From: Desulfobacterales bacterium
Lineage (GTDB): Bacteria; Desulfobacterota; Desulfobacteria; Desulfobacterales; UBA2245
Length of the DNA: 64,000 nt
Reading direction: 5' to 3'
NCBI GenBank assembly: GCA_040771865.1
Contig: JAXGZF010000004.1
Coordinates: forward strand, 289,916 to 353,915
Below the pieces are notes generated by a model that was not told the origin of the DNA, did not search any database, and saw only the letters and a list, made by a program, of their open reading frames with translations. This document shows positions 17,402 to 48,181 of this stretch, piece by piece; the first letter of the stretch is position 1; every line of letters starts with the position of its first letter. The translations under genes and the position numbers were made by a program.

Positions 17402-17509
17402 GACGCTCTCCTTTCTTCAAAAATGGATTAAGATTACCGGCTTTTCAACGAAAGCCATTGGCCCGTGTTTCATCAATTGATCTGGATGAAACCAAATTTG
17501 TATATTTAT

Positions 17510-17534: not shown

Positions 17535-17541
17535 CAACATT

Positions 17542-20606: not shown

Positions 20607-22019
20607 GTGTCCGTGAAACCGGTTCTGAATATGGACTGTGTCTCATTTACCTATCCCGGTTCATCCGTTCCCGCCCTCAGTGATCTGTCATTGTCCATGA
20701 CTGCGGGTGAATGCGTCTGCATCTCGGGGCCTACCGGATGCGGCAAAACCACGATGCTGATGGCGGTCCAGGGACTGTTGAAAGATGGCGACAGGCAGGG
20801 TTCGATTTCCATCCAACCGGTGCTGCCGGGGCTGGATTCCGGAATGGTGTTTCAAAATGCGGAAACCCAGATCCTGTGCAGCACGGTGGAGGATGAGGCG
20901 GCATTCTGGCCGGAAAATTGCGGAATGTCCGCAGACGATATCCGTTTCGCGGTCGAAGACGCCCTGGATGCGGTGGGGTTGGCGGGACTGCGAAATCGAA
21001 ATGTTGAAGCGCTTTCCGCCGGACAGAAACATCGGCTTACCATCGCGTCCGTCCTGTCGATGAAGCCGGGTTTGATTCTCATGGACGAACCCTGCGGACA
21101 GCTCGACGCCCCCGGAAAGCGGCGGCTCATCGAGATACTGGAGAATCTCAAACACAGGGGTCATTCCCTGCTGATCGCGGATCATGAACTGGAGCCCTAT
21201 CGATCGATTGCCGATCGATTCGTGCTGATGGAAAACGGCCGCATTCAACGGATTTCACGGGAGTTTCCTTCCGAGTACGAAATGTCCCGGGTTTTCGAAG
21301 GAATCAGCTCGGATCCGAACTCCCGGTCTTTCGGGCCTCCGGCCGTGGAGATCGGGAACCTTCAGGTGGCCGGGCCGGAAGGGAATCTACTGATCGATCA
21401 GCTGGATCTAACAGTCAGGCGCGGAGAGTTCGTTCATATTTACGGGATTAACGGATCCGGCAAGTCCACCTTTCTCAAGTGCGTCTGCGGATTTGTTCGT
21501 ACGGAATCCGGAATGATCCGGATTGCCGGAATCAATCGCCCCCGGCCCTGGCAGCTGGCAGGCAAGGCGGCCTTGCTGATGCAGAATCCGCAGCGCCAGC
21601 TCTTTGAAGACAGTGTGTTCGATGAGGTCGCCTTTGCGTTGAAAAGAACGGGAATGGGGGCGGATCAGGTTCGAGAGCGGGTCATGGAGACCCTGGAGGG
21701 TTGCGCCTTGAGTCATCTTGCCGATCGTTCTCCTCTGACTTTGAGCTTCGGCGAACAGCATCGCGTGGCGCTGGCATCCGTGATCGTTTCCGAACCGGAG
21801 GTGCTGCTGCTGGACGAGCCTTTTGCCGGTCTGGACGTCAACCGGCGACGTCAGACCATTCGGCAGATTGAAACGATTTGCCGGGACCGGAAAACGGCCG
21901 TGATAATGGCATCTCACAATCCCTTATACGCCGGGCATTGCGCAGATCAATCTCTGGTTCTGGAAAACGGCCGTTTCAGTCCGGTGGTTTTCAATAATCA
22001 GGATATGTCTCTTTCATGA
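20607..22019 (+). CDS. Duplicated ABC ATPase of the ECF/CbiO type (two fused nucleotide-binding domains)
   Basis: 470-aa ORF with two Walker A motifs (GPTGCGKTT, GINGSGKST), two signature motifs (LSAGQKHR, LSFGEQHR) and two Walker B motifs (LILMDEP, VLLLDEP). Confidence 0.85.
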   Translation: MSVKPVLNMDCVSFTYPGSSVPALSDLSLSMTAGECVCISGPTGCGKTTMLMAVQGLLKDGDRQGSISIQPVLPGLDSGMVFQNAETQILCSTVEDEAAFWPENCGMSADDIRFAVEDALDAVGLAGLRNRNVEALSAGQKHRLTIASVLSMKPGLILMDEPCGQLDAPGKRRLIEILENLKHRGHSLLIADHELEPYRSIADRFVLMENGRIQRISREFPSEYEMSRVFEGISSDPNSRSFGPPAVEIGNLQVAGPEGNLLIDQLDLTVRRGEFVHIYGINGSGKSTFLKCVCGFVRTESGMIRIAGINRPRPWQLAGKAALLMQNPQRQLFEDSVFDEVAFALKRTGMGADQVRERVMETLEGCALSHLADRSPLTLSFGEQHRVALASVIVSEPEVLLLDEPFAGLDVNRRRQTIRQIETICRDRKTAVIMASHNPLYAGHCADQSLVLENGRFSPVVFNNQDMSLS

Positions 22020-22705
22020 GTCTGAGTGCGTTTCAAGGAATCGGCTGGCAGTTCAGCGCCGTTGATTCCATGCTTCACCGAATCAGCGCGGGCTGGAAAA
22101 TGGCGGGCATGCTCGCGATGTGCTGCGCGGCTTTTATCGGGAAAAGCTTTCCAACCCTGCTGGCGCTGCTGGCTCTCAATGTTATCGGATACCGTATGGG
22201 ACGCGTGAAAGCCGTTGAGATGTGGAAGGACATGCGGTTTTTCATGATCCAGACGGTGATCGTGGTGGGGCTGTATGTTCTGCGGGATGGAATTTATGAG
22301 GGGGTGTTGCCCGGCCTGCGAACATCTCTACAGATCCTGCTGTTTTTCATGCCGGGCGCTCTTTTTCTTCGCGTGACCCCGTCTTCCCAGCTGATGAGAA
22401 GCCTGCGCCGCTGGCTGCCGGAGCGGATCGCGTTTTTCGTGTTCATCAGTTTTCGTTTTATCCCGTATTTTGCAAGGGAGATATCCGACATATCCATGGC
22501 GCAGCAGTTGCGGGGCGCCCGGATCGACAAGCGTTCCCTTGCCAATCCTAAAAACTGGCCGGGGCTGTTTCACTGTCTGATGGTTCCCCTCATGATACGG
22601 GTTATGAAAACCGCTGAGGATGTGGCGTTGTCTGCAGAGGCCAGAGGCTTTGGAAAAACCCGCCGTCCGCATTCCAGTTTTCCAGTTGCAAAGGAGTGTG
22701 AATGA
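22016..22705 (+). CDS. ECF-transporter T component / CbiQ-family transmembrane protein
   Basis: 229-aa polytopic membrane protein with the C-terminal coupling motifs ...AQQLRGAR... and ...ALSAEARGFG typical of CbiQ/EcfT. Its start overlaps the ATPase stop (ATGA). Confidence 0.72.
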   Translation: MSLSAFQGIGWQFSAVDSMLHRISAGWKMAGMLAMCCAAFIGKSFPTLLALLALNVIGYRMGRVKAVEMWKDMRFFMIQTVIVVGLYVLRDGIYEGVLPGLRTSLQILLFFMPGALFLRVTPSSQLMRSLRRWLPERIAFFVFISFRFIPYFAREISDISMAQQLRGARIDKRSLANPKNWPGLFHCLMVPLMIRVMKTAEDVALSAEARGFGKTRRPHSSFPVAKECE

Positions 22706-23271
22706 AACCATCCGACGATCATCTGCTGTGGGGAATGTTCAGCCTGCGGGAGGCCCTTTACCTGTCCTTCTGTGCGATTTTTATCGTTATCGCCAAGGCG
22801 GTTCTGCGGCTTCATCTGCATGTGACCGGCCACAGCATGGTGTTAACCATGTTTTTTATGATTCTTGCGCGGGGTTGCGTACAGCGCAAAGGCGCAGCGA
22901 CATTTGTCGGGCTGATCGCCGGCCTCATGTGTCTTGTGTTCGGAATGGGCGCAAAGTCCGGACCGCTGGTGGTTCTCAAGTTTCTTCTGCCGGGAATTGT
23001 GATCGATGTCGCTGCAATCCTGTACCCTCTGCTGGCCCAGCGCTATGTTGCCTGCATTATCGTCGGGGCGGTTGCGGCAGGCAGCCGGGTGGTCATACTC
23101 GGCCTGGTCGATTGGCTTGTCGGCATCGACCGGGAAATGATTTTGCAGCATATGGTCCTCTTGTCCGTTATGAATATCGCATTCGGTGCGATCGGAGGCG
23201 CCATGGTTCCGCCGGTGGCAAGACGTCTGGCCGCCCACGGCCTGATTCCATCCGCCGGGCCGAATCCATGA
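22702..23271 (+). CDS. Small polytopic membrane protein, candidate substrate-capture (S) component
   Basis: 189-aa ORF with about 5-6 hydrophobic helices. It is translationally coupled (ATGA overlap) to the T component. It lacks the CbiM/NikM N-terminal MHI motif. The assignment rests on context and topology only. Confidence 0.45.
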   Translation: MKPSDDHLLWGMFSLREALYLSFCAIFIVIAKAVLRLHLHVTGHSMVLTMFFMILARGCVQRKGAATFVGLIAGLMCLVFGMGAKSGPLVVLKFLLPGIVIDVAAILYPLLAQRYVACIIVGAVAAGSRVVILGLVDWLVGIDREMILQHMVLLSVMNIAFGAIGGAMVPPVARRLAAHGLIPSAGPNP

Positions 23272-24790: not shown

Positions 24791-25645
24791 ATGAAAAGGC
24801 TGCTTATTTGTCTGTTGATGTTTGTCGGGTTTGGGTTTCAAGAAGCGGCAAATGCCCTTGACGGCAGTCAGTTTATTCTTCTGTCCTCAACCATTGGCCC
24901 AATCGATTCCGGCATTGTCGAAGTTCTGGAAAACCAGTTTGAAAAGGAAACCGGCATTCGGGTGCGCCATGTCGGCGCCGGAACAGGGGCGGCGTTGAAT
25001 ATTGCCCGCAAAGGCAGTATCGACCTCGTGATGGTCCATGCCAAATCCCTGGAGGAAAAATTTATTCAGGAAGGGTTCGGAACCCAACGAATTCCTCTGA
25101 TGTACAACGATTTCGTTCTGGTCGGACCCGCCTCGGATCCTGCCGGCATTCGGGGAATGAAAACAGCCGCGGAAGCGCTTCGCCGGATTTCAGAGAAAGG
25201 CGTCGCCTTTATCAGCCGGGGAGACAAGTCGGGAACGAACGTGGCCGAACTGGAACTCTGGGAAAAGGCGGGGCTCAAGCCCTCTGCCCCTTGGTACGCA
25301 ATCTATGAAAAGGGGTCCGAAGGCAATTCCGCGACGTTGAAGTATGCCAGCCAGCAGGAGGCTTATACGGTTATTGACAGGGCCACCTTTCTCGCTCTAA
25401 AGGATCAGATTCAACTGGTTATCCTCGTCGAAGGCGATGAAGCCATGCTGAACTACATCAGCCTTATCCCAGTCGATCAGAAAAAATTCAAAACGGTCAA
25501 CGCGACCGACACGATGCGTTTTGTAACCTGGCTGACCGACCCGAAAAAGGGACAGGCCGTCATTCGGGACTTCGGAAAAGAAAAATACGGAGCTCCGCTG
25601 TTCTTTCCCAATTCGGAAGACTGGCAAAAGTCTAAAGGAAAATAA
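24791..25645 (+). CDS. Periplasmic tungstate/molybdate-binding protein paralog (TupA-like, divergent anion-binding motif)
   Basis: 284-aa ORF with a signal peptide, collinear with the TupA at 25767. Both share the VRHVGAGTGAAL / IAVGSGQAM block, the VHA(K)S/VHSPAAE block, DFVLVGPASDPAGI and FISRGDKSGT. The N-terminal TTTSTQDSG is replaced by SSTIGPIDSG. Confidence 0.75.
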   Translation: MKRLLICLLMFVGFGFQEAANALDGSQFILLSSTIGPIDSGIVEVLENQFEKETGIRVRHVGAGTGAALNIARKGSIDLVMVHAKSLEEKFIQEGFGTQRIPLMYNDFVLVGPASDPAGIRGMKTAAEALRRISEKGVAFISRGDKSGTNVAELELWEKAGLKPSAPWYAIYEKGSEGNSATLKYASQQEAYTVIDRATFLALKDQIQLVILVEGDEAMLNYISLIPVDQKKFKTVNATDTMRFVTWLTDPKKGQAVIRDFGKEKYGAPLFFPNSEDWQKSKGK

Positions 25646-25766
25646 CGGATTCAATTCATCATATTCAAACCTGCGCCAAAAAGGTGCGAACAAACTTGTC
25701 CATTTTGATGTATTACTTGATCAATTTAATTGAACGGATCACAAAAATTTATTAAGGAGGATGAAA

Positions 25767-26654
25767 ATGAAGCTTAAAAAGCGTACAATCTGTTACCGTT
25801 ATCTGGGATTTATTGCACTCCTGTGTCTGATCACGGGTCTGGCAAGCGTCACATCTGCTTTTGCGGCTGAACCGGCGCAGAAAAACATTATTCTGGCCAC
25901 TACGACCAGCACTCAGGATTCCGGTCTTCTGGACGCCCTGATTCCGATTTTCGAAAAGGAAACCGGTTATTTTGTCAAGACGATCGCCGTCGGTTCCGGT
26001 CAGGCCATGGCCATGGGAGAGAAGGGTGAAGCAGATGTCCTGCTGGTCCATTCACCTGCAGCGGAAAAAAAATTTATGGAAGCGCAAAACGGAATCAACC
26101 GCCGCCTCGTCATGCACAATGACTTCGTGATCGTGGGTCCGCCCGCCGATCCTGCCGGCATCAAAGGCTCCAAGACTTCTCCGGAAGCTTTTACGAAGAT
26201 TGCCGGCACCAGTTCCCTGTTTATTTCCCGGGGCGACAACTCAGGAACGCATTCCAAGGAAAAGGGGATCTGGAAAGCCGCGGGGCTTAATCCGGAAGAG
26301 CAGCCTTCGAAATGGTATCAGCAGACCGGACAGGGCATGGGCCATACCCTCAATGTCGCGGCCGAGAAACTGGGTTATACGCTCACTGACAGGGGAACCT
26401 GGCTTTCTCTGCAGAAAAACCTCGGGCTTCCCGTTCTCATGGAGGGCGACCCGATCCTGCTGAACGTCTATCACGTCATCGAGGTCAATCCGGCCAAGTG
26501 GCCGAAAGTCAACGCACCCGGCGCCCGTGCTTTCTCCGACTTCATGGTTTCGCCCGCGACCCAGAGTATCATCAAAACTTTCGGCGTGGACAAGTATGGA
26601 TCTCCTCTGTTTTTCCCGGATGCGGGCAAGAAAGTGGAGGATCTCGGGAAATAA
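25767..26654 (+). CDS. tupA: Tungstate ABC transporter substrate-binding protein
   Basis: Has a signal peptide and ILATTTSTQDSGLLDALIPIFEKETGY, the Thr-rich motif typical of TupA. Also contains FISRGDNSGTH. It is followed by a permease and an ATPase. ATG 25767 has better RBS spacing than 25761. Confidence 0.85.
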   Translation: MKLKKRTICYRYLGFIALLCLITGLASVTSAFAAEPAQKNIILATTTSTQDSGLLDALIPIFEKETGYFVKTIAVGSGQAMAMGEKGEADVLLVHSPAAEKKFMEAQNGINRRLVMHNDFVIVGPPADPAGIKGSKTSPEAFTKIAGTSSLFISRGDNSGTHSKEKGIWKAAGLNPEEQPSKWYQQTGQGMGHTLNVAAEKLGYTLTDRGTWLSLQKNLGLPVLMEGDPILLNVYHVIEVNPAKWPKVNAPGARAFSDFMVSPATQSIIKTFGVDKYGSPLFFPDAGKKVEDLGK

Positions 26655-37295: not shown

Positions 37296-37424
37296 TTATT
37301 TCGCGTCGGCGCAGAAGGCCGGTAGGACTCCGTTCCTTCTGCCCGCGCGCGGATCTGTTATTAAAAACCAACCTCTATGCCGCTTTAAGATCCGGCCGGA
37401 GGATGAATCGGTACTTTCGGGCAT
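37296..37424 (-). pseudogene. 5' remnant of fdhE left downstream of fdhB copy 1
   Basis: The minus-strand ATG at 37424 gives MPESTDSSSGRILKR..., versus MPESTESSSGRILKG... at the start of the intact fdhE (42734). Similarity then disappears and the frame stops after 42 codons. The flanking DNA is near-identical to 42700-42820. Confidence 0.55.
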
Positions 37425-37453
37425 AAAACACTCCAATCTCGTGGATGCATGTG

Positions 37454-37487
37454 AAAAAGGGAGGGAGATTCACATCTCCCTCCCTTT
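37454..37487 (-). terminator. Rho-independent terminator-like hairpin after fdhB copy 1
   Basis: GGGAGGGAGAT-(4 nt loop)-ATCTCCCTCCC forms a perfect 11-bp GC-rich stem at 37459-37484. On the minus strand it is followed by TTTTT. Confidence 0.7.
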
Positions 37488-37508
37488 CTGATGATGGATC
37501 CTATCGGG

Positions 37509-38252
37509 TTATCCCAACAGGTTTCTGACAGTCCGCTTCAGGGGCGCCGTCATCTTGGAGATGGCGGCCATTCGAGAGATGCCCGCCGGACCCTGAGCTA
37601 CCAGATTCTTGTGATAGAATTCCGGTTTGTCCGTGATCAGGTAAATGACCCGGACCTCTTCCGCGTCGATCAACTGGGCTTCGGGAAATTCTTTCTTTAC
37701 AATGGCGAGCCGTTTTTGCGCCTCTTCAAGCATCTTCTCCCGGTCTCCAAAAAGGATCGCCCTGGTGATGCAGACCTTTGCGCACATGGGAATAAGCCCG
37801 GCAGCCACCCGCTCGAAGCACATGTCGCATTTGTTAATGACTCCGGTGGCGTCGTCGCGTCTCGGAATATCATAGGGGCATGCGCTTTTCATCTCGTCGA
37901 AGGCTTCCTTGGGCAATTCCTTGATCTTTTCGGTATAAACCACCGCGCCTGTGGCTTCGTCGATGATGACAGCGCCCTGCACATATTGGTTGGCAATATC
38001 CTTGCAAGGCGGCTGGAGGCAGTGGCGGCACTGGTCGCTCAAGAAATTCCACGTGACGCGATCGCCGATTTTATGCTCCTGAAAACGAACGATCTTGTAG
38101 TTCCTGGGATTCAGATCGGGCGGATTCTGATGGCTTCCCCAACCCAGCTGTGTTGTTTTGTTAGCCTGGAAGCCCTGCCATTCCTTACAGGCGACCTGGC
38201 ATCCACGGCACGCCGTGCACCGGGTTACATCAATGAAAAATGATTTTGACAT
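37509..38252 (-). CDS. fdhB: Formate dehydrogenase iron-sulfur (beta) subunit, copy 1
   Basis: 247-aa ORF with multiple ferredoxin-type Cys clusters (CTACRGCQVACKEW, CRHCLQPPC, CPYDIP, CDMCFERV...PMCAKVC). It lies immediately downstream of fdhA. Confidence 0.9.
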   Translation of the reverse strand: MSKSFFIDVTRCTACRGCQVACKEWQGFQANKTTQLGWGSHQNPPDLNPRNYKIVRFQEHKIGDRVTWNFLSDQCRHCLQPPCKDIANQYVQGAVIIDEATGAVVYTEKIKELPKEAFDEMKSACPYDIPRRDDATGVINKCDMCFERVAAGLIPMCAKVCITRAILFGDREKMLEEAQKRLAIVKKEFPEAQLIDAEEVRVIYLITDKPEFYHKNLVAQGPAGISRMAAISKMTAPLKRTVRNLLG

Positions 38253-38312
38253 ATTGTTCCTCCCTTTTTAATAAGCGGGCGAGCATGGGTCCGTCCGCCC
38301 GCTTTTTCATTT

Positions 38313-41300
38313 TTATGACAGTTCGGTCACCTTGTCCGCCTTCCGGATATTGACGAGGCAGGCCTTTGATTCTTGAATGGTGGTATTCGGATCGCCCGCC
38401 GAGATACACAGACGGTTGGTTGAATCGCCACACCCCGGAGTTGTCCAGCCGAAGCAGAACGGCATTCCGATCAGGTGGACGGTCTTGCCCTGAATCTTGA
38501 ACGGAGTGATGCGCATGGTGACCATGGCCGCAGCTTCAACCCGGCCTCTCGCGCTTTCGATAATCACGCCGTCGCCGTTCTTGATCCCCTTTTCCTTGGC
38601 CAGCTCCTCGCTCATCTCCACATAAAGCATGGGCTCGGCTTCAAGCAGGGGGGGAGTGTTTCTCGTTTCACTGCCGCTGCACCAGTGCTCTGTCAGGCTG
38701 TAGGTGGTCAGAACAATCGGATACTTGGGATCTCCCGGAACGGCAAGCTTGTCCATATCGCTTTGGATGACCTTTGCGCACGGGTTGTTCAGTTGATTTG
38801 AGAACAGATGCTTCTTAACAGGGGTTTCAATCGGCTCATAATGCTCCGGAAACGGACCGTCAACAAGTCCGGGGCCGAAAAGGCGTCCAAATCCCTCCGT
38901 CTGCATGATAAACGGATGTGTGCTTTTTCCTGATGAGACCGGCGGCGCTCCGCCATCGGGGACATCGCCGATCCATTTGCTTCCGTCCCATTCGATAACG
39001 GCACGAGAAGGGTCCCACGGTTTCCCGTTTAAATCAACCGATGCCCGGTTGTACAGAATTCTGCGGTTGACCGGCCAGCACCATGAAAATTTTGGAAAGA
39101 GTCCCAATTTGGCTTCCCTCTCGTTCTGCGTCAGATCGCGGTTTTTCGTCTGGTTGCCCTGTTCCGTAAAACTGCCGGCATATATCCAGTTTGGACAAGC
39201 CGTTGAACCGTCATCTGCGAATTCGGTAAAACTGGACACCTGGGTTCCCTTTTTGGGGCCGCTTACATAATAGCCGTTGCATTTTTTCGCAATTAATTCA
39301 GCATCGTATCTGTCATAAAAATCCATGTTCACAATAGGTCCAGGGAATGCACCGCCCTTTTCCTTGTACAGTCTCTTCACTTCGTTCATAATATCGATCA
39401 TGGTCTGTCCCATGGCTCTCGAGTCGCCCCTGGGTTTCGTGGCCTGATAGTGCCACATTATCCATCTTCCGCTGTTGGCGACAGAGCCTTCTTTCTCAAC
39501 GCGGTGGCTTGACGGGAAAAGGAAAACCTCTGTTTTGATATCTTTCGGATTAATGCCCGGACCATGCCAGAAATCCGTTGTTTCGTTGTGAAAGATGTCC
39601 GCAATAAACACCCAGTCGAGATTCCCCATGGCTTTCCTTATCTTGTGGATGTTTGGAAGGGACTGCGCGGGATTGGAGCCGAAAATTGAACCACCTTTCA
39701 TCCCGCCTTTATACATTCTGTCAAAATAAAACATAAAGGAATTGTCGCCCGCGTCCCAGCTTGCAGCCGCATCGAGTTTCGGAAGCCAGCTGTATCTAAA
39801 ATCGTTTTCCCTGGTTGCCGCGTCGCCGTACCAGGCTTTCAGCAGGCTGACCACGTATTTCGGGCGGTTCTGCCACCAGTTGACGCTTGCAGGATCTTTG
39901 GAGATCGGAGTAAACTTTTTATTGTAATCCGCAAGCGTAGGAAGATCGGCACGGGGCATCGGGTGATAGCCCGGAAGCTTATCGTACAGTATGGCATAGT
40001 CTGTTGCTCCCTGCACGTTGGGTTCGCCTCTCATGGCGTTGACGCCGCCGCCGGCGATGCCGATGTTGCCGAGCAGAAGCTGGACGATGCCGCCCGTGCG
40101 GATGTACTGAACGCCTACGGTATGCTGGGTCCAGCCAAGGGCATACAGGATGGTTCCGGCTTTGTCGGGTTTTCCAGTTGCTGTGTATAATTCATAGACT
40201 TTATTAATTTTTTCAACAGGTACGCCTGTAACCTCGGATACCTTTTTGATGTCGTATCTGGAATAATGCTTCTTCAGCAGCTGGAAAACACATCGGGGAT
40301 CCTGAAGGGTTTTATCCTTTTTCGGAATGCCGTTGGCGTCGTACTCGAATTTCCAGCTCGATTTGTCATACAGTTTCTTCTTTGCATCATATCCCGAGAA
40401 CAATCCGTCGTTGAATTTAAATTTATCGCTGACGATAAATGCCGCGTTCGTATAATTGACTACATAATCTTTAAAGTATTTGCCGTTGTCGATTATATAT
40501 TTGATCATGCCACCCACAAAAGCAATGTCGGTGCCCGAACGAATCGGCACATGGAGGTCCGCTCTCGCAGAGGTCCTTGAAAATTTGGGGTCGACGTGAA
40601 TGATTTTTGCGCCTCTTTCTTCCTTTGCCCGCATTATCCATCGAAAAACCATGGGATGATGCTCGGCCGCGTTGCTGCCGATGATTAAACAGCAATCCGT
40701 ATTCTTTACATCAATATAGTGATTTGTCATCGCACCGCGGCCGAAACATTGCGCAAGTGCCGGGACGGTTGAACTGTGGCACACGCGCGCCTGATGGTCC
40801 ATATTTACAATGCCAAGACAAGCCACCGCCTGACGTGTAACGGATAGTTCTTCATTGGTCATTTGCGATGAACCCATGTGGAACATTTCATCCACGCGGT
40901 TTACGACCTGACCTGCCGCATTCTTTTCTTTAAAATATTTGTCTCTTGTATCTTTAATGCGCCTGGCGACTTCCTTAACCATCCAGTCGTAATCCCTCTC
41001 CACCCATTGGTCGCTGTTCGGCGCGCGGTACAAAGGCTTGAGCAATCTGTTATCGCTGTTGATCTGGGACAGCATTGCCGCGCCTTTTGCGCACAGGGCG
41101 CCTTCGCTGACCGGATAGTCGGCGTCGCCTTCCGTACTGACAACCTTGCCGTTTCTGACATGGGCTATATACTGGCAAATGACCGAACAATAAGGACAGC
41201 TTGTGAGGACTTCCGTAGCGCCCCTGATCTTCAGCTCCTTTGCATAGGCTGTCGCGGGCCCCAGACCGAAACCCACCTGGCTCAGGGCGATTGCTGCCGC

Positions 41301-41345
41301 CCCGGCGCCCGTTACCTTCATAAAACCCCGCCGTGTAACTTCCAT
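38313..41345 (-). CDS. fdhA: Periplasmic formate dehydrogenase catalytic (alpha) subunit, Cys-type, copy 1
   Basis: Has a Tat signal (MEVTRRGFMKVTGAGAAAIAL) and an N-terminal 4Fe-4S motif (CPYCSVIC...LCAKG). The bis-MGD family blocks are present. The active-site stretch is HQARVCHSSTV, with TGC (Cys) where copy 2 has TGA. The start at 41345 is preceded by GAAGGAGG. Confidence 0.92.
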   Translation of the reverse strand: MEVTRRGFMKVTGAGAAAIALSQVGFGLGPATAYAKELKIRGATEVLTSCPYCSVICQYIAHVRNGKVVSTEGDADYPVSEGALCAKGAAMLSQINSDNRLLKPLYRAPNSDQWVERDYDWMVKEVARRIKDTRDKYFKEKNAAGQVVNRVDEMFHMGSSQMTNEELSVTRQAVACLGIVNMDHQARVCHSSTVPALAQCFGRGAMTNHYIDVKNTDCCLIIGSNAAEHHPMVFRWIMRAKEERGAKIIHVDPKFSRTSARADLHVPIRSGTDIAFVGGMIKYIIDNGKYFKDYVVNYTNAAFIVSDKFKFNDGLFSGYDAKKKLYDKSSWKFEYDANGIPKKDKTLQDPRCVFQLLKKHYSRYDIKKVSEVTGVPVEKINKVYELYTATGKPDKAGTILYALGWTQHTVGVQYIRTGGIVQLLLGNIGIAGGGVNAMRGEPNVQGATDYAILYDKLPGYHPMPRADLPTLADYNKKFTPISKDPASVNWWQNRPKYVVSLLKAWYGDAATRENDFRYSWLPKLDAAASWDAGDNSFMFYFDRMYKGGMKGGSIFGSNPAQSLPNIHKIRKAMGNLDWVFIADIFHNETTDFWHGPGINPKDIKTEVFLFPSSHRVEKEGSVANSGRWIMWHYQATKPRGDSRAMGQTMIDIMNEVKRLYKEKGGAFPGPIVNMDFYDRYDAELIAKKCNGYYVSGPKKGTQVSSFTEFADDGSTACPNWIYAGSFTEQGNQTKNRDLTQNEREAKLGLFPKFSWCWPVNRRILYNRASVDLNGKPWDPSRAVIEWDGSKWIGDVPDGGAPPVSSGKSTHPFIMQTEGFGRLFGPGLVDGPFPEHYEPIETPVKKHLFSNQLNNPCAKVIQSDMDKLAVPGDPKYPIVLTTYSLTEHWCSGSETRNTPPLLEAEPMLYVEMSEELAKEKGIKNGDGVIIESARGRVEAAAMVTMRITPFKIQGKTVHLIGMPFCFGWTTPGCGDSTNRLCISAGDPNTTIQESKACLVNIRKADKVTELS

Positions 41346-41574
41346 TTGTTGCCTCCTTCGATTTGTTTTCATGATTTATTGCCTGCAACCTTTTCAGCGC
41401 TTGTTCGGAGATCACGTTGCCGCTTCCATTCGATGCCGGCTGAAATTTCCTCGCAAGCCCTGATATGTAAATTTCGTCGAGCCATTTATATAATCAATTA
41501 TTCAAATTGAAGGAATAAATGACATAATGCAGTACGGTTGTCAATAGATTTTATAGAAAAATGCTATAATATTA

Positions 41575-41594
41575 ATATGTTATGGCAAACATAT
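41575..41594. promoter_or_regulatory. Near-palindrome ATATGTTA-N4-AAACATAT upstream of fdhA copy 1 (candidate operator)
   Basis: Read from the sequence. It occupies the same position and has the same 8-4-8 architecture as the perfect palindrome upstream of fdhA copy 2. It lies within an otherwise partly diverged leader/promoter region. Confidence 0.35.
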
Positions 41595-41757
41595 AAAAAA
41601 GGGCATCCGGCGTGGTGGGAAAAATATTACGCGGAAATTTCCCGGCGAACAGGAAACGATCCTTGCGGGGGTTTTACAGAAGAAAGCGGTTTATTGAAAA
41701 TAGGGCGAAGATTGTTGTTGGTGAGATCGCTCTTTTACGGCCGCTTGCCGCAAAATT

Positions 41758-41786
41758 ATAAGCTCGCCTTTGAACGGCGAGCTTAT
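41758..41786 (-). terminator. Hairpin downstream of fdhE (possible terminator)
   Basis: ATAAGCTCGCC-(7 nt)-GGCGAGCTTAT forms a perfect 11-bp stem about 70 nt after the fdhE stop. On the minus strand it is followed by AATTTTG, a weak U-tract. Confidence 0.4.
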
Positions 41787-41855
41787 GAAATTCAAATCGA
41801 ATGGGGTGGGTTGATCCGGCTCTTACAGAAGATCCGATCCGGTTCGTATTTGGTA

Positions 41856-42734
41856 TTAAAACCCAACCTCTATACCGCTTTTAAATCCGGTTTCCGCTGC
41901 CTTGATATCCAGATGCGGAGTGGAAATATATTCCAGGGGCGGATAAATTTCCCGGTCTGTTTTCCGGGTGTCCACGGTCTTGATGTATTTTCCGCACTTG
42001 TCGCAGACGTCCAGACGGTGCTCTTCCTCGCTCTCAATTTCGAAATAGTGAAGGGCGTTGTGGTCCGTATTGTCGCAGAAGGGGCAGAATATTCTTTTCG
42101 TGGCCCATTTGTGCCAGCAGAAGCTGCAGCAGAAGAACCGCTTCCCGTTTTCCTCGAATATCGAAATCGCCGGGAGCGACCCGCAGATCGGGCAGTATCC
42201 CTTTTCCCAGGGCTGGTTCTTGTCCAGATAACTTGAAAGCTGCTTTGCGCACCGGGCCAGCGAGGGTTTCACGCTGCTGTAGACAATGAAGCCCAGCGTT
42301 TTTTTATCGATTTTAAGCTCGTCTGAGACTTTTTGAAAAAAAGTTTCGTCCGATTTCAGAAACGCGGCAAAAAGCGCGTTTAAATCCAGTTTCCCGGCTT
42401 CCACGGCTTCGGCAATCTTTTTGGCGGATTCAGACATTGCTCCGGACGCCTGCTGAACGATTTCGCACAGATTTTTGAACAGCGCCGCGGCTGCCCTGGA
42501 ATCGATTGCAAACTGCGAAATGTCGATGAGCGGAAATCCTTCTTTTACTTTTAGAGCCAGGGCGTCTGCGGAAATTTCCAAGGGTTCGATACGGGTCTGA
42601 TTTGCCGAATCCTCCTGAGCGATAAAAATCTTTTCATAGAAATCGATCAGGTCGGAATAATTCGGCTTCAGCTTTCGGATTTCTTCCAGCCCCTTTAAGA
42701 TACGGCCGGAGGATGACTCTGTGCTTTCGGGCAT
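41856..42734 (-). CDS. fdhE: Formate dehydrogenase accessory protein FdhE
   Basis: Has four CxxC pairs in the FdhE arrangement (CPICGS, CSFCWHKW, CPFCDN, CDKCGKY). The start at 42734 (MPESTESSSG) has the RBS GGAG. Confidence 0.88.
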   Translation of the reverse strand: MPESTESSSGRILKGLEEIRKLKPNYSDLIDFYEKIFIAQEDSANQTRIEPLEISADALALKVKEGFPLIDISQFAIDSRAAAALFKNLCEIVQQASGAMSESAKKIAEAVEAGKLDLNALFAAFLKSDETFFQKVSDELKIDKKTLGFIVYSSVKPSLARCAKQLSSYLDKNQPWEKGYCPICGSLPAISIFEENGKRFFCCSFCWHKWATKRIFCPFCDNTDHNALHYFEIESEEEHRLDVCDKCGKYIKTVDTRKTDREIYPPLEYISTPHLDIKAAETGFKSGIEVGF

Positions 42735-42763
42735 AAAACACTCCAATCTCGTTGATGCATGTG

Positions 42764-42797
42764 AAAAAGGGAGGGAGATTCACATCTCCCTCCCTTT
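42764..42797 (-). terminator. Terminator-like hairpin after fdhB copy 2, identical to the copy-1 hairpin, only ~30 nt upstream of the fdhE start
   Basis: The same GGGAGGGAGAT-TCAC-ATCTCCCTCCC stem occurs at 42769-42794, with TTTTT on the minus strand. Confidence 0.6.
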
Positions 42798-42818
42798 CTG
42801 ATGACTGAGCCTATCGGG

Positions 42819-43562
42819 TTATCCCAATAGATTTCTGACGGACCGCTTCAGGGGTGCCGTCAGTTTGGCGATGGCGGCCATCCGTGAGATGCCCGCCGGC
42901 CCCTGCGCTACCAGATTCTTGTGATAGAATTCCGGTTTGTCCGTGATCAGGTAAATGACCCGGACCTCTTCCGCGTCGATCAACTGGGCTTCGGGATAGT
43001 CTTTCTTGACAACGGCGAGCCGTTTCTTCGCCTCATCCATCATCTTCTCCCGGTCTCCAAAGGTGATCGCCGAGGTGGGGCAGGACTTTGCACACATGGG
43101 AATGAGTCCGGCGGCCACCCGCTCGTAGCACATGTCGCATTTGTTAATGACTCCGGTGGCGTCGTCGCGTCTCGGAATATCATAGGGGCATGCGCTTCTC
43201 ATCTCGTCGAACGCTTCCTTGGGCAGCTGCTTGGCTTTGTCGGTATAAATTACCGCACCCGTGGCATCGTCGAAGACGACGGCGCCCTGCATATAGCCGT
43301 CGGCCATGTCCTTGCAGGGCGGCTGGAGGCAGTGGCGGCACTGGTCGCTCATGAAGTTCCACGTAACCTTGTCGCCGATTTTATGCTCCTGAAAACGAAC
43401 GATCTTAAAGTTTTTGGGATTCAGATCGGGCGGATTCTGATGGCTTCCCCAGCCGATCTGCGTGGTCTTGTTTGCAGCGAATCCCTGCCATTCCTTGCAG
43501 GCGACCTGGCATCCCCGGCACGCCGTGCATCGTGTTACATCGATCAAAAATGTCTTTGACAT
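42819..43562 (-). CDS. fdhB: Formate dehydrogenase iron-sulfur (beta) subunit, copy 2
   Basis: 247-aa ORF, collinear with copy 1 and identical to it at most positions. The same Cys clusters are present. Confidence 0.9.
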   Translation of the reverse strand: MSKTFLIDVTRCTACRGCQVACKEWQGFAANKTTQIGWGSHQNPPDLNPKNFKIVRFQEHKIGDKVTWNFMSDQCRHCLQPPCKDMADGYMQGAVVFDDATGAVIYTDKAKQLPKEAFDEMRSACPYDIPRRDDATGVINKCDMCYERVAAGLIPMCAKSCPTSAITFGDREKMMDEAKKRLAVVKKDYPEAQLIDAEEVRVIYLITDKPEFYHKNLVAQGPAGISRMAAIAKLTAPLKRSVRNLLG

Positions 43563-43621
43563 GTCGTTTCTCCCTTTTTAATAAACGGGCGGACAGGAAT
43601 CGCCCGCCCGTTTTTCGCATC

Positions 43622-46600
43622 TTATGACAGTTCGGTCAACTTGTCCGCCTTTTTGATGTTGACAAGGCAGGCTTTGTATTCAGGAATGGAGGTGTTCGGA
43701 TCGCCCGCCGAGACGCACAGACGGTTGGTGGCGTCGCCCACTCCGGGAGTAGTCCAGCCAAAGGCAAAGGGCATTCCGATTTCATGAACGGTCTTGCCCT
43801 GAATCTTGAACGGGGTCATGCGCATAGTGACCATGGCCACGGCCTCGACCCTTCCTCTGGCGCTTTCGACAATCACGCCGTCGCCGTTCTTGATTCCCTT
43901 TTCCTTGGCCAGTTCCTCGCTCATCTCTACGTAAAGCTGGGGTTCGGCTTCCAGCAAAGAGGGCACGTTTCTCGTCTCCCCGCCGCCGCACCAGTGTTCC
44001 GTCAGGCTGTAGGTGGTTAGAACGATGGGATACTTCGAATCGCCCGGGACTGCCCGCTTGTCGAGTTCGCTTTCAATCACCTTGGCGCAGGGGTTGTTGA
44101 GCTGTTTGGAGAAGGGGTGCTTCTTGACCGGGGTTTCGATCGGTTCGTAATGCTCGGAGAACGGCCCTTCCTCGCGTCCGGGGCCGTAAAGCGCGCCGTG
44201 CCCTTCCTTCTGCATGATGAAGGGGTATTTGCCCTGTCCGGTTGCCATCGGAGGCCAGCCGCCGTCAGGCACGTCGCCGATCCACTTGTTGCCATCCCAC
44301 TCGATGACAACTCGGGTCGGATCCCAGGGCTTGCCGTTCAGGTCGACCGAAGCCCGGTTGTACAGGACTCTCCGGTTGACCGGCCAGCACCACGAATAGC
44401 CTGGGAAGAGGCCGATTTTGGCCTGCAGGTCGGTCTGGGACAGGCCGCGATTCTTCATCTTGTTGCCCGCCTCTTCAGTATAGCTTCCGGTGTAGAGCCA
44501 GTTCCGGGAGCTGGTCGATCCGTCGTCGGCCAGATTGGCGAAGCTGGGCACAAGGGACCCTGCCTTGTATGTCTTGTCTTTAATGGTGGTGTCTTTGAGG
44601 AAGAAACCGTTGCATTCTTTCGCGATTTGTTCCGCATCGAAATGGGAGGGCCAGTTCAGGTTCACAATCGGTTCCGGAAATACGCCGCCTTCTTCCCTGT
44701 AAAGCTTTCGCACCGCGTTCATGATTTCCACCATGGTCTCGCCCATGGATTTGGATTCGCCTGCCGGTTCGGCGGCCTTGTAATGCCACAATACCCAGCG
44801 TCCGCTGTTGCTGATGCTGCCTTCCTTTTCCACGCGGTGGCAGGCTGGGAACAGGAACACTTCGGTTTTGATGTCCTTGGGGTTGACCCCGGGCCGGTGC
44901 CAGAAATCGGTGGTCTCATTTTGATGGATTTCGGAGATGTACAGCCAGTCCAGGTTGTCCATCGCTTTCCGGACCTTGGTTGTGTTGGGTATGCTCTGGG
45001 CCGGGTTGTGCGCCCAGACCGAGCCGCCCTTGATTTTCCCCTTGTACATCCGGTCGAATATATGCAGGTGTGAATAGTCGCCCTGCACGAGACCTTTTGG
45101 CGTATCGCCCTTCGGAACCCAGCTATAGGCGAAATCGTTTTCCTTTGTCGCTGCGTCGCCGAACCAGGATTTCAGCAGGCTGACCACGTATTTCGGGCGG
45201 TTCTGCCACCAGTTGGCGCTCAGGGGATCCTTGGTGACCGGTGTGTTGGCCTTGTTGTAATCGGCCAGGGTGGGCCAGTGTGACCGGGGTACCGAATGAT
45301 AGCCGGGCAGGATATGATAGAGAATGCAGTGGTCGGTGGAACCCTGAACGTTGGGCTCGCCGCGCAGCGCGTTGATGCCGCCGCCGGCAACGCCGATGTT
45401 GCCCAGCAGCAGCTGAACGATCGCGCTGGTCCGGATGTTCTGAACGCCGACCGTATGCTGGGTCCATCCCAGGGCGTACATGACCGTTCCGGCCTTGTTC
45501 TTTTGTCCGGTCGCGGCATACGTTTCATACACCTTGAGCAGATTTTTTTCTGAAACGCCGGTGATCGCCGAAACATTCTTTAAATCGTACCGGGAGTAGT
45601 GTTTCTTCAGAAGCTGGAAAACGCATCTTTTATTCTTGAGAGTCTTGTCTCTTTTCGGAACTCCGTTGGCGTCCACATCAAACGCCCAGGCTTTTTTGTC
45701 GTAGGTGCTCAAATTCTTGTCAAAGCCGGAAAACAGGCCGTCTTTGAAACCGAATTTTTCGCCGACGATAAACGATGCGTTGGTGTATTCCGTTACGTAT
45801 TCCTTGAAGTATTTTTCTTTGTCGATAATGTACTTGATCATGCCGCCCAGAAACGCGATATCCGTTCCGGAGCGAAGGGGCACGTGAAAATCGGCCCGTG
45901 CCGAGGTTCTGGAGAATTTGGGGTCCACATGGATGATGGTCGCGCCTCTTTCCTCCCTGGCCTTCATAACCCATTTGAAACAGATGGGGTGATGCTCGGC
46001 GGCATTGCTGCCCATAATCAAGGCACAGTCCGTGTTTTTAATATCAATCCAGTGATTGGTCATCGCGCCGCGTCCGAACGACTCTCCCAGAGCCGCAACA
46101 GTTGCGCTGTGTCAGATACGGGCCTGATGATCCATGTGGACGACGCCCATGGCTCGCAGCGCCTGATGAACGATGGCGCATTCCTCGTTGCTCATCTGGG
46201 AGGAGCCCAGGTGAAAAATTTCCTCCACCCGGTTGACGACCTGTCCGCTTTCATTGGTGGCTTTAAAGTTTTTGTCGCGGGTGTCCTTGATCCGCCGCGC
46301 CAAATTTTCCAGCATCCACTCCCAGCTCTTTTCTTCCCACTTGTCGCTGTACGGAGCGCGGTACTTGGGCTTCAGGACTCTGTGGTGGCTGTTGATCATG
46401 GAATTCATGGTCGCGCCTTTTGCGCACAGGGCGCCTTCGCTGACCGGATAGCCCGGATCGCCTTCGGTGCTCACAACCTTGCCGTCCCTCACATGCGCAA
46501 TGTAATGGCAGCAGACTGAACAGAACGGGCAGATCGAGATGACTTCCTTGGCGCCCTTGATCTTCAGCTCCTTTGCATAGGCTTTCGCGGGTCCCAGACC

Positions 46601-46678
46601 GAAACCCAGCTGGCTCAGGGCGATTGTCGCCGCCCCGGCGCCGGTTACCTTCATAAAAACTCGCCGTGTTACATCCAT
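43622..46678 (-). CDS. fdhA: Periplasmic formate dehydrogenase catalytic (alpha) subunit, selenocysteine-type, copy 2 (in-frame UGA at 46114..46112)
   Basis: Track ORFs 46112..46678 and 43622..46063 are in the same frame, separated only by TGA. Reading through gives ...HMDHQARI-U-HSATVAALGESFGRGAMTNHW. This aligns with HQARVCHSSTV...GRGAMTNHY of copy 1 and with the known Sec position of FDH-type enzymes. A Tat signal (MDVTRRVFMKV) is present and the RBS is AAGGAGG. Confidence 0.9.
46078..46111 (-). promoter_or_regulatory. Candidate bacterial SECIS hairpin immediately 3' of the UGA codon
   Basis: The mRNA after the UGA reads CACAGCGCAACUGUUGCGGCUCUGGGAGAGUCGUUCGG. GCGGCUCU-GGG-AGAGUCGU can form a stem of about 8 bp (including G-U pairs) with a G-rich apical loop, starting 15 nt after the UGA. 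I folded this by eye only, and an alternative smaller hairpin (CGCAA-CUG-UUGCG) exists. Confidence 0.4.
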
Positions 46679-46925
46679 TAGTTGCCTCCTTCGATTGTCT
46701 TACTGATGATTTGTAACCTGCAACCTTTTCAGCGCTTTTACCAGGATCACGCAGCTTCCGTTTGTTGCCGGAGAAGGTTTTCCTCCTGAATAGACTTGCC
46801 GCAAGCTCTGATATTAAAAAGCGTCGAGTTATAATTTACGGAATCGATCATTCCAGTTTCTATCTTATTTGATATAGAGGGATCGAATTGTCAAGGCTTT
46901 TTGAAATAAAAATGTAATAATTTTA

Positions 46926-46945
46926 ATATGTTACGAATAACATAT
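46926..46945. promoter_or_regulatory. Perfect palindrome ATATGTTA-CGAA-TAACATAT upstream of fdhA copy 2 (candidate operator)
   Basis: Read from the sequence; the 8-bp arms are perfectly complementary. It lies about 250 nt upstream of the fdhA2 start, and a counterpart sits at 41575-41594. Confidence 0.35.
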
Positions 46946-47099
46946 ATCGGGGCGGCTGGCAGAACAATATGTGCTTTCGGAAAATAATTTGACATCAGTT
47001 AAGCAATATGTCATTTATGACATAAATAAAAAACAACTTCCGCTCTTGGAAAGCTGAATATCGAAATGAAGGACCCGCATCTTCAGAAAGGAGGCGACG

Positions 47100-47438
47100 A
47101 TGCATATGATCCGGCAGGACAAAATAAGAGCGACGGACATCGGAGTCGCGGCGTCTATTATAGGGCGTCTGGGTTTTGATATGAAGCCGGCCGCGGCTTA
47201 TGCATCGAGCCTTAAATTCCAGGGTGTCCGGGAGATGAGCTGCATCTGCCCGCTTTGCTCCGCTGGCTGTCGCTGTATTGCCCACGTGCAAGGCGGTGAG
47301 GTTGTCCGAACCGAAGGCGCCGGTGATCTGGTCAGAAACGGTGATCCGGTCAGAAACAGCGAATGCGCTCTGCGCTCAAAAGGCGCCGCCATGCTGCCGG
47401 TGATCGCGGCGGAACTGAACATCCTTGACGGGAAATAA
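47100..47438 (+). pseudogene. Degenerate N-terminal fragment of a third fdhA (Tat-signal and 4Fe-4S domain region only)
   Basis: The 112-aa ORF aligns with the first ~95 residues of FdhA. LGFDMKPAAAYASSLKFQGVREMSCICPLCSAGCRCIAHVQGGEVVRTEG matches LGFGLGPAKAYAKELKIKGAKEVISICPFCSVCCHYIAHVRDGKVVSTEG. The twin-arginine motif is lost (IRQDKIRA). The LCAKG Cys position is Arg. An 18-bp tandem duplication is present and the frame ends soon after. A strong RBS (AAAGGAGG) is retained. Confidence 0.55.
47322..47357 (+). repeat. 18-bp tandem direct repeat inside the fdhA fragment
   Basis: GGTGATCTGGTCAGAAAC / GGTGATCCGGTCAGAAAC differ at one position and encode GDLVRN-GDPVRN. The intact paralogs have a single unit at this place. 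Confidence 0.9.
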
Positions 47439-47800
47439 GTTCCGGTCCGAAAATGATCATGAGAACAGGTCGGCCTTGAAAATGCAAGAATCCGTGCAGT
47501 GGAGCCCGCCCGTATTATGATAAAAAATTTCGGAACGTCCACAGGAATGACTCCCCGCCAGCTGCTTTCGATCTGTCAAGATTTCAGAACGTCCCTCTCT
47601 TGCGACCTCATAGAGTTTGAAAAACATTTTTGTTTATGCTAATTTGAACATAATTTTATTCGCTGCCTTTTTGAACTCAGGTTGAGCGCGGCATTCAAGA
47701 AAACAGCCAGGCTTTGGCCGGCGCTCGACAGCGGGCATGTTTGAATTGCCGAATTTATGTGCTCGATTAATCGAATGATTCCGTTAACAGAGGGCCGTAA

Positions 47801-48181
47801 ATGAAAAATATCGATACTACGATGCGGATCCGTTTGTGGTTTGAGACCGACAGGCAGATGCTGTTCGGCCTGGGCCGGGTTCTGCTGTTGAAAAAGGTCG
47901 ATGAGTGCGGATCGCTTTACAGGGCGGCAAAGGAAATGGGGATGTCCTACCGGGCCGCCTGGGGAAAAATCAAGGCCACCGAAAACGAACTCGGCGTCGA
48001 ACTGCTCACGAAAGCTCCAGGTGAAAAGCGGTACCGCCTGTCCGAAAACGGCCAGCTGCTGCTCGATAGTTTTGATCGGTGGTGCCGCGACATCGAGGAG
48101 ATGGCGCTTCAAAAGGCCCGGAATATCTTCCCCTGGCAAATCCGAAAGTATGACGCAAAGGAAATCAATAACGCCCCCTGA
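47801..48181 (+). CDS. ModE N-terminal-domain-only winged-helix regulator, paralog 2
   Basis: MRIRLWFETDRQMLFGLGRVLLLKKVDECGSLYRAAKEMGMSYRAAWGKIKATE is clearly paralogous to 36876..37295. The 126-aa ORF has no Mop/TOBE domain. Confidence 0.7.
   Translation: MKNIDTTMRIRLWFETDRQMLFGLGRVLLLKKVDECGSLYRAAKEMGMSYRAAWGKIKATENELGVELLTKAPGEKRYRLSENGQLLLDSFDRWCRDIEEMALQKARNIFPWQIRKYDAKEINNAP

Follow-up and report, generated by a model that had tools for sequence, protein, structure and literature searches.

We analyzed a 64,000-nucleotide (nt) stretch of DNA from a Desulfobacterales bacterium (GenBank assembly GCA_040771865.1, contig JAXGZF010000004.1, positions 289,916 to 353,915 of the forward strand; here, the window) that carries, in direct tandem on its minus strand, two fdhA-fdhB units for predicted periplasmic formate dehydrogenases (FDHs), one of the selenocysteine (Sec) type and one of the cysteine (Cys) type at the catalytic position. 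An initial annotation had explained the pair as a tandem segmental duplication in this genome that yielded the two forms side by side. Judged from divergence and tree placement, fdhA1 (Cys) and fdhA2 (Sec) are instead old paralogs, the split between the Sec and Cys lineages being far older than the divergence of this genome from its relatives. The best explanation of the arrangement as a whole, which we consider likely, is that old Sec and Cys paralog units in a modular array have recombined at fdhB and fdhE and that a deletion in fdhE came later.

We refer to the Cys unit of the window as W1 and to its Sec unit as W2; L001, L002, L024 to L026, L080, and similar labels denote the related loci compared with them. 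Along the minus strand, the array is composed of a leader, fdhA2, fdhB2, a hairpin, fdhE, a spacer, a second leader, fdhA1, fdhB1, a hairpin, and a remnant of fdhE, followed by a convergent gene for a ModE-N-like protein. In a global nucleotide alignment, the collinear homology of W1 and W2 extends from ~41595/46945 to ~37385/42695, and their proteins are 71% (FdhA) and 86% (FdhB) identical. Translation gives the catalytic motifs HQARV-C-HSS in FdhA1, whose start is the ATG at 41345 and not that at 41372, and HQARI-U-HSA in FdhA2. Both copies display a twin-arginine translocation (Tat) motif, TRRxFMK, and a hydrophobic stretch ending in AYA. The terminator hairpin is identical in both units (dG = -27.5 kcal/mol; z = -6.4); as a promoter and terminator consensus scan missed the one between fdhB and fdhE, direct folding was used in its place. 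The initial description of two homologous collinear units, one Sec type and one Cys type, each with a conserved palindrome, a ribosome-binding site (RBS), a Tat-signal fdhA, fdhB, and the same hairpin, was thus accurate (coordinates in Table 1).

The closest point of comparison is L002 (Desulfobacteraceae bacterium UBA2245), a sister genome whose flanking proteins are 88 to 95% identical to those of the window, with a baseline synonymous divergence (dS) of 0.22 to 0.37. It is collinear with the window at ~90% nucleotide identity but has a single unit, in which a Sec-type fdhA and fdhB are followed by an intact fdhE adjoining the ModE-like gene (protein identity to the window: FdhA2, 96.6%; FdhB2, 96%; FdhE, 89.7%). 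Relative to L002, the window has an extra block of 4.46 kb (41853 to 37394), with the last ~35 nt of fdhE on both its sides. Four fdhA-fdhB-fdhE units (a to d) in the order Sec-Cys-Cys-Sec are found in L001 (Desulfobacterales bacterium AnMBR.bin174) and in L025, which is of the same type. The flanks of L001 are distant from the window (protein identity, 57 to 59% for FmdE and ModE and 68 to 70% for FdhE); its second FdhA is 93% identical to FdhA1 and its first 84% identical to FdhA2. FdhA1 is 93 to 94% identical in protein to the Cys-type L001b, L025b, L026b, and L024b; in L024 and L026, fdhE and a c-type unit come after the Cys unit, and the sequence before it is unrelated.

Synonymous divergence and tree placement concur on the age of the pair. 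The dS between fdhA1 and fdhA2 is 1.6 (nonsynonymous divergence [dN], 0.18), compared with 0.20 between fdhA1 and L026b, 0.25 between fdhA1 and L001b, 0.29 between fdhA2 and L002, and 0.63 between fdhA2 and L001a. A neighbor-joining (NJ) tree of 136 sequences (residues 215 to 1005) places FdhA2 inside a Sec-type clade, with ~20 clusters (defined at 90% identity) that are 75 to 96% identical to it versus 72% for FdhA1, and groups FdhA1 with L001b, L026b, and P0002 to P0004 in a second clade, that of the Cys type. Together, the dS of 1.6, the separate clades, and the single unit of L002 indicate that the two copies are not each other's closest relatives and that the paralogy long predates this genome. 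The phylogeny proposed as a check in the initial annotation, run here as the NJ tree, separates the copies; units that are not each other's closest relatives are the outcome that the initial annotation had itself named as contradicting its model, and duplication within this genome as the source of the Cys and Sec forms is not borne out.

A recent in situ tandem duplication of fdhA, fdhB, and the 5' end of fdhE, followed by divergence, a Sec/Cys switch, and conversion slowing divergence at the 3' end, would account for units that are collinear and share both homology end points, for a sister genome with one unit only, and for the fdhE sequence repeated at the boundary. We nevertheless hold it to be very unlikely, since the dS of the fdhA copies is five to eight times the window-L002 divergence, three or more other lineages have Cys-type genes to which fdhA1 is 93 to 94% identical, the Cys leader is 86% identical to the Cys-unit leader of L024/L026 versus only 73% (46 to 77%) to the resident Sec leader, the tree places the copies apart, and divergence along the unit is not uniform (46 to 100% identity per 60- to 100-nt block, the block size used throughout). 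By their omega values (0.13 to 0.16 for fdhA1 against Cys-type genes, 0.06 to 0.16 for fdhA overall, and 0.07 to 0.13 for fdhB), both units are evidently intact and under purifying selection. The first genome scan for relatives used signal-peptide patterns only, so that sampling was narrow; a metagenome scan with FdhA1 recovered a single additional close relative, a duplicate of L028, its other matches being at most 69% identical, and exact-protein look-ups of FdhA1 (with both candidate starts), of P0125, a protein from an NCBI contig with which FdhA1 is identical, and of FdhB1 found none of them on record.

Comparison among loci identifies the in-frame TGA of fdhA2 as a predicted Sec codon. 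The frame stays open for 829 codons beyond it, with an omega of 0.06 against the L002 ortholog. The identical codon is TGA in L002, L001a, L025a, and L001d and in 73 of the ~105 related loci. It is aligned with the catalytic position of the tungsten/Sec FdhAB of Desulfovibrio vulgaris (DvFdhAB; U192 [PMC13397495]), for which the best Protein Data Bank (PDB) chain has Cys (HQARICHS). A hairpin resembling the Sec insertion sequence (SECIS) lies ~18 to 36 nt past the UGA in 5/5 Sec-type copies examined (W2, L002, L001a, L025a, and L001d) and is broken in the closest Cys-type copies (W1, L001b, and L026b). A TGA that really ended translation, or that was misread in sequencing, would make copy 2 a pseudogene and leave the Cys enzyme as the only one produced. 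Two kinds of results speak for this and against a Sec codon. A permissive scan with the Rfam model SECIS_3 gave 28.1 bits on the Sec copy and 27.1 bits on the Cys copy (gathering score, 63), and at gathering thresholds Rfam detected no SECIS family, nor a molybdenum cofactor riboswitch, in the whole window. Further, the Sec machinery (selABCD and tRNA-Sec) was not seen among the scanned open reading frames (ORFs) of the window, in which a tRNA scan found no tRNA genes. We nonetheless regard a stop or an error as extremely unlikely in view of the long conserved frame, the shared TGA, the alignment with the DvFdhAB catalytic position, and a conserved hairpin that lies at the bacterial SECIS distance and is confined to TGA copies. 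With SECIS_3 scores far below the gathering score and nearly equal in the Cys copy, the SECIS assignment rests on comparison and not on a family match; folding of the fdhA2 hairpin is no better than that of shuffled sequence.

FdhA contributes more of the detected Sec-to-Cys events than any other selenoprotein family, SECIS-like remnants persist in some of these, and for this protein Sec-to-Cys events but no Cys-to-Sec events have been published (PMC1794560; Zhang, Romero, Salinas and Gladyshev 2006). In agreement with that work, the Cys clade is nested among Sec-type sequences in the NJ tree, and the Cys lineage most probably arose via a Sec-to-Cys change. The retention of a hairpin in L001c is a further likeness to the published conversions; unlike in those, the window's Cys clade has already lost the hairpin and coexists with a Sec paralog instead of replacing it. 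A second Cys/Sec pair is present in L001, comprising unit c (15761 to 18823; Cys) and unit d (21864 to 23030). The SECIS-like hairpin that the Cys-type L001c retains, GGCUCU-GGC-GGAGUC, contains G-U wobbles, and its presence suggests that the Sec-to-Cys change in this gene is younger than that of the window's Cys clade.

Pairwise nucleotide alignment with sliding identity bore out the initial description of the similarity between the units as mosaic. Per block, fdhA1 is 88 to 99% identical to L001b/L026b (71 to 87% in three near-end blocks) and only 46 to 94% identical to fdhA2. The longest identical run lies in fdhB, as first described, although its length is 90 nt (37597 to 37686 = 42907 to 42996) rather than ~86 nt; others measure 71, 51, 37, 35, 34, and 29 nt, of which the 71-nt run is within fdhB and the 51-nt run is at the terminator. 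With 90 differences over 741 nt, a 90-nt run was reached in 4 of 20,000 permutations preserving codon position (P of ~2 × 10−4). At the informative sites that separate the resident type (R; fdhB2 = L002) from the Cys-unit type (C; L026b = L001b), fdhB1 reads C...C, RRRRR, C, RR, CCC, RR, CCCCCC, RRRRRRRR, and its last ~300 nt, the hairpin, and the 5' end of fdhE are 93 to 100% identical to L002 and fdhB2. Within L001, units a and b are 91% identical in fdhB, 92% in the leader, and 99 to 100% at the 5' end of fdhE, with fdhA only 72% identical.

The patchwork of sites and the permutation result support gene conversion at fdhB, the terminator, and the 5' end of fdhE. The conversion surmised at the junction in the initial annotation is thereby upheld, with the difference that it acts between old paralogs and not between young duplicates; it is short-tract recombination of this kind that gives the units the look of a recent duplication. 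Conversion of the signal-peptide region was considered and is not supported, as all types are 81 to 94% alike there. Concerted evolution via gene conversion between tandem paralogs is a general phenomenon in bacteria. As in other cases, we see short identical tracts and a signal that switches between grouping by paralog and grouping by genome; what sets this locus apart is that conversion is apparently confined to fdhB, the terminator, and the 5' end of fdhE, with the catalytic genes ~28% diverged.

The statement in the initial annotation that unit 1 ends in the first codons of fdhE holds in that ~13 to 14 codons are present, but these are fused out of frame to the end of the same gene. The retained 5' part, the ATG with ~13 codons, runs from 37424 to ~37385 and meets the final ~30 nt of the gene (~37393 to 37361) within a short microhomology of the TTAAAG type (4 to 9 nt), the blastn segments overlapping at the junction; the resulting 42-codon ORF has no Pfam match. 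The sequence past the remnant, including a GC-rich hairpin, is orthologous to that 3' of the intact fdhE of L002. The remnant and the L002-like sequence beyond it point to either a second full fdhE once present here or a longer array that ended here, with subsequent deletion. We infer that the one remaining fdhE, located downstream of the Sec unit, now has to serve the Cys unit as well.

Matches in independent assemblies argue against an assembly artifact as the source of the arrangement, of the TGC, or of the mosaic fdhB1. Three other assemblies match 43032 to 40125 (99.1%), 42996 to 40188 (99.6%), and 42783 to 41100 (100%), spanning fdhB2-fdhE-spacer-fdhA1, and the independent contig L108 matches 40192 to 37632 at 99.8%, covering fdhA1 and most of the mosaic fdhB1. 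The fdhA2 TGA lies outside these contigs and is backed by the identical TGA in its L002, L001, and L025 orthologs; neither diagnostic codon, then, appears to be an assembly error, a concern raised at the outset. An artifact would have arisen had the near-identical fdhB/fdhE repeats joined the Cys unit of a co-occurring population to the resident Sec locus. The contig is probably metagenome derived, exact repeats reach 90 nt, and contigs of other assemblies end exactly at the 90-nt repeat. This scenario is still highly improbable in our estimation, given that the three spanning assemblies come from different samples, that another runs from fdhA1 into the mosaic fdhB1, and that the remnant junction is a 4- to 9-nt microhomology deletion and not a repeat-length join. 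Two contigs from the same population, L108 (ending at 37632) and L110 (starting at 42996), have their breaks within the 90-nt repeat or at its border, and such breaks are expected if the repeat is present twice in those genomes. They illustrate how loci of this kind fragment or collapse in metagenome-assembled genomes (MAGs), and a similar effect could hide a Cys unit in L002.

According to the preferred explanation, units of leader-fdhA-fdhB-hairpin-fdhE would form head-to-tail arrays of variable length in Desulfobacterales, with fdhB and fdhE serving as long direct repeats. By recombining with each other, fdhE or fdhB repeats could remove a unit by deletion or excision, and the reverse reaction could insert one at any fdhE. 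What the window has beyond L002 is a single unit with fdhE sequence at its two ends, the form expected from such recombination. The 4.46-kb block (spacer, leader, fdhA1, fdhB1, and fdhE 5' end) would thus have been gained here or lost in the sister, a later deletion would have taken nearly all of the second fdhE, and short-tract conversion would hold fdhB, the terminator, and the 5' end of fdhE near-identical as the catalytic fdhA genes remain distinct. The layout also occurs in L080 (2963 to 11780), where a ModE-like gene, a Cys-type fdhA-fdhB, a Sec-type fdhA-fdhB, and a single fdhE are found, the two units being 72.5% (FdhA) and 78% (FdhB) identical; as this is an independent lineage, the tandem Sec/Cys FdhAB arrangement appears to be recurrent.

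Several points weigh against this explanation. The 4.46-kb difference may stem from a gain in the window or from a loss in L002; as L002 is a MAG, a unit flanked by repeats could also have been left out during its assembly. By blastn, no homolog of the 260-nt spacer was found in the fetched loci, so that no donor context emerged, and the search for such a context found no homologs of the region upstream of the Cys unit in L024 either. The NJ tree is without bootstrap support, and the independent assemblies cover two of the three junctions, that from fdhB1 through the remnant to the ModE-like gene being seen in this assembly alone.

A variant of the preferred explanation fixes its direction as loss in the sister. 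Here, an array of Sec unit, fdhE, Cys unit, fdhE, and further units, already present in the common ancestor of the L001 lineage and the clade of the window, would have been inherited vertically, the window would have kept its first two units and lost those downstream, the fdhE remnant would be a scar left where a deletion fused the Cys unit's fdhE with the final one in the array, and L002 would have lost or relocated its Cys unit via fdhE-by-fdhE recombination. The adjacency of Sec and Cys units common to the window and L001/L025 fits this variant, as do the adjacency of Cys and c units, with the spacer between units b and c, common to L026 and L001, the dS of 0.20 between W1 and L026b, which equals the species-level baseline, and the lack of mobile-element genes nearby among the scanned window ORFs. 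It is at odds with a spacer between fdhE and the Cys leader that is not homologous between the window and L001, with the positions of ModE and FmdE at opposite array ends in the two lineages, with the unrelated sequence preceding the Cys unit in L024, and with the divergence of the Cys-type fdhA, for which at least one lateral exchange is needed anyway. We give this variant appreciably less than even weight.

That divergence concerns the L001 lineage and the clade of the window, between which dS is 0.62 for a-type fdhA, 0.66 for fdhB, 0.84 for fdhE, and 1.26 for c-type fdhA. For the Cys-type fdhA core, it is 0.25 (dN, 0.033), equal to the within-clade distance. A value so far below that of the neighboring genes points to lateral replacement of the Cys-type fdhA core on one or more occasions, by homologous recombination in conserved flanks. 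We tentatively propose, as a possibility that we rate below even chances, that fdhA-fdhB-fdhE units act as recombination cassettes in which flanking fdhB and fdhE provide portable homology for the excision, insertion, or deletion of entire units and by which the Cys-type fdhA core may have been swapped laterally between Desulfobacterales lineages.

TABLE 1 Features of the fdh array and its flanks (window coordinates)
Feature	Position	Strand	Remarks
ModE-N-like helix-turn-helix (HTH) regulator, 142 aa	36867-37295	+	Convergent with the array; Pfam HTH_1; NCBIfam ModE_repress domain below cutoff
fdhE remnant	37297-37424	-	Out-of-frame fusion of the 5' end of fdhE with the final ~30 nt
GC-rich hairpin between fdhE remnant and ModE-like gene	37300-37350		dG = -30.3 kcal/mol; z = -4.3; kept in L002 3' of its intact fdhE
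Cys-unit terminator hairpin	37459-37484	-	Same sequence as Sec-unit terminator
fdhB1, mosaic beta subunit	37509-38252	-	Cys-unit-type and resident-type tracts alternate; Pfam Fer4_11
fdhA1, Cys-type alpha subunit, 1,010 aa	38313-41345	-	TGC at 40779-40781; distinct Cys clade
Cys-unit promoter and leader	41346-41595	-	Palindrome ATATGTTATGGCAAACATAT (41575-41594); RBS GAAGGAGG
Spacer of 260 nt, fdhE to Cys-unit leader	41596-41855	-	No homolog by blastn against fetched loci
fdhE, FDH maturation/accessory protein, sole intact copy in array	41856-42734	-	Pfam FdhE_central and FdhE_C
Intrinsic terminator hairpin and T5 run, between fdhB2 and fdhE	42769-42794	-	Same sequence as 37459-37484
fdhB2, iron-sulfur beta subunit of Sec unit	42819-43562	-	Assigned via homology to fdhB1 (Pfam Fer4_11)
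fdhA2, Sec-type alpha subunit, predicted Tat-exported W/Mo-bis(pyranopterin guanine dinucleotide) FDH	43622-46678	-	In-frame TGA at 46112-46114
SECIS-like hairpin CGGCUCU-GGG-AGAGUCG	46078-46096	-	Begins ~18 nt past UGA of fdhA2; by folding
Sec-unit promoter and ~200-nt leader	46679-46950	-	Palindrome ATATGTTACGAATAACATAT (46926-46945); TTGACA box; RBS GAAGGAGG
Second ModE-N-like HTH gene, 126 aa, upstream of Sec unit	47801-48181	+	By tblastn; Pfam HTH_1

Both units are predicted to encode soluble periplasmic two-subunit FdhAB enzymes of the D. vulgaris type. FdhA1 matches TIGR01553 (FDH-N alpha) with 1,290.9 bits (cutoff, 814.2) and the Pfam domains Molybdop_Fe4S4, Molybdopterin, and Molydop_binding; Pfam TAT_signal is slightly under its cutoff (20.7 versus 22.7 bits). 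The best PDB match is DvFdhAB (6SDR and related entries), full length at ~1,200 bits, and the (U/C)HS pair and the active-site Arg in RGE(P/S)NVQG are aligned with that chain. FdhB matches Fer4_11 and scores only 131 bits with the FDH-N beta model TIGR01582 (cutoff, 335), no gene for a gamma subunit (cytochrome b) was found between 35 and 50 kb of the window, and the best matches of FdhE are the NCBIfam FdhE models, though under their cutoffs. The Tat signal, the TIGR01582 score far under the cutoff, and the lack of a gamma-subunit gene nearby are what identify the enzymes as soluble and periplasmic. One difference between the beta subunits was seen at residues ~157 to 166 of FdhB1, which read CAKVCITRAILF where FdhB2 and the usual cluster motif have CAKSCPTSAITF, so that FdhB1 lacks the Pro that follows the last cysteine of the cluster.

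DvFdhAB itself (from Nitratidesulfovibrio vulgaris Hildenborough) shares with the window the Tat signal, the N-terminal 4Fe-4S motif, the Sec/Cys-His pair, the Arg, and the alpha-beta-only composition; unlike it, the window encodes a natural Cys-type enzyme beside the Sec-type one. We take the surface disulfide Cys845/Cys872 of DvFdhAB to be a redox switch protecting against O2. In the alignment, this pair is missing from both window copies, which have IETPV for LECPV and AVPGD for AVCD; if the disulfide has that role, an O2-protective redox switch would be missing in both. The price of a Cys form is indicated by the U192C variant of DvFdhAB, whose activity is much lower and which is less O2 tolerant (PMC13397495).

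The two ModE-N-like proteins, 42.5% identical to each other, bracket the fdh array. The second of their genes is overlapped by a longer minus-strand ORF (47639 to 48139) without a family match, which is probably spurious. Also in the neighborhood are two TupA-like genes with an ATP-binding cassette (ABC) permease and an ATPase, a ModABC set, an FmdE-MoCF fusion, and an HTH_3 plus PBP_like regulator; the TupA-like and ModA transporter genes, to whose systems the initial annotation had referred, are 3 to 13 kb from the array. The TupA-like genes (24791 to 25645 and 25761 to 26654; plus strand) are tandem copies that precede a single permease gene and a single ATPase gene, both fall below the NCBIfam TupA cutoff, and they constitute a further paralog pair within the same metal-handling neighborhood. 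No transposase or integrase domains were found among the scanned window ORFs, the remainder of which are housekeeping, and an explanation by a mobile element was dropped for this reason. Divergent from fdhA2 lies a 112-codon ORF (47100 to 47438; plus strand), conserved in L002, that resembles the first ~100 residues of FdhA (43% identity). It has a degenerate Tat region without the RR motif, followed by CxxCxxxC...C (Pfam Molybdop_Fe4S4, 22.0 bits versus a cutoff of 22.7), and probably represents a relic left by some earlier rearrangement or, alternatively, possibly a small Fe-S protein.

Each unit has its own leader and promoter region. In the 64 kb there are exactly two copies of the palindrome ATATGTT-N6-AACATAT, against a chance expectation of none; each unit has one, upstream of a TTGACA box. 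Outside the window, the palindrome precedes the first (Sec) unit of L001 (4302 to 4321) and a different FDH gene, NAD type in appearance, in L021 (6786 to 6805) and L022 (233 to 252); the leaders of the Cys units L001b and L025b, as aligned, lack it. This distribution suggests that it is a candidate conserved FDH operator. It may serve a common regulator, with the flanking ModE-N-like proteins as candidate binders, possibly responsive to molybdenum or tungsten. A conserved RNA structure in the ~200-nt leaders was rejected (consensus energy, -5 kcal/mol, with an unfavorable covariation term), and the leaders have no Rfam family.

By analogy with other organisms, the pair most likely combines a highly active selenoenzyme with a selenium-independent backup isoenzyme; a choice between tungsten and molybdenum by the two enzymes is speculation. 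Sec and Cys paralogs in one genome are also known as fdhF(Sec) and fdhF(Cys) of Treponema primitia and as the selenium-dependent and -independent FDHs of Methanococcus, the Cys form being presumed to serve under selenium scarcity. In T. primitia, selenium raises the full-length fdhF(Sec) transcript and lowers the fdhF(Cys) transcript, and without selenium the fdhF(Sec) transcript is terminated prematurely (PMC3892789). Those enzymes are cytoplasmic and of the FdhF or F420 type, whereas the pair in the window is predicted to be of the periplasmic FdhAB type, in direct tandem with one fdhE and a concertedly evolving fdhB. If fdhE transcripts come chiefly from read-through of the Sec operon, fdhE expression may drop under selenium starvation via UGA polarity, which could starve the Cys enzyme of its accessory protein.

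Multiple periplasmic FDHs are already known in sulfate reducers (PMC2702500), and Sec/Cys isoenzyme pairs, Sec-to-Cys conversion in FdhA, and gene conversion between paralogs are all established. The present findings do not change current understanding; what they add is a pair that is both old and mosaic, a scar of fdhE, and a hint of cassette-like exchange. They illustrate that an apparent recent duplication can be an old paralog pair homogenized at its edges. They also provide a natural Sec/Cys pair of a biotechnologically important FdhAB-type CO2 reductase in one background, with a near-identical beta subunit and one fdhE, which is convenient for asking what Sec adds in activity and O2 tolerance and how the organism switches between the forms. 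Exchange of Cys-type catalytic subunits between lineages is hinted at. If the units are indeed cassettes, selenium independence could spread as a plug-in beside resident Sec enzymes, with gene conversion keeping the shared parts compatible.

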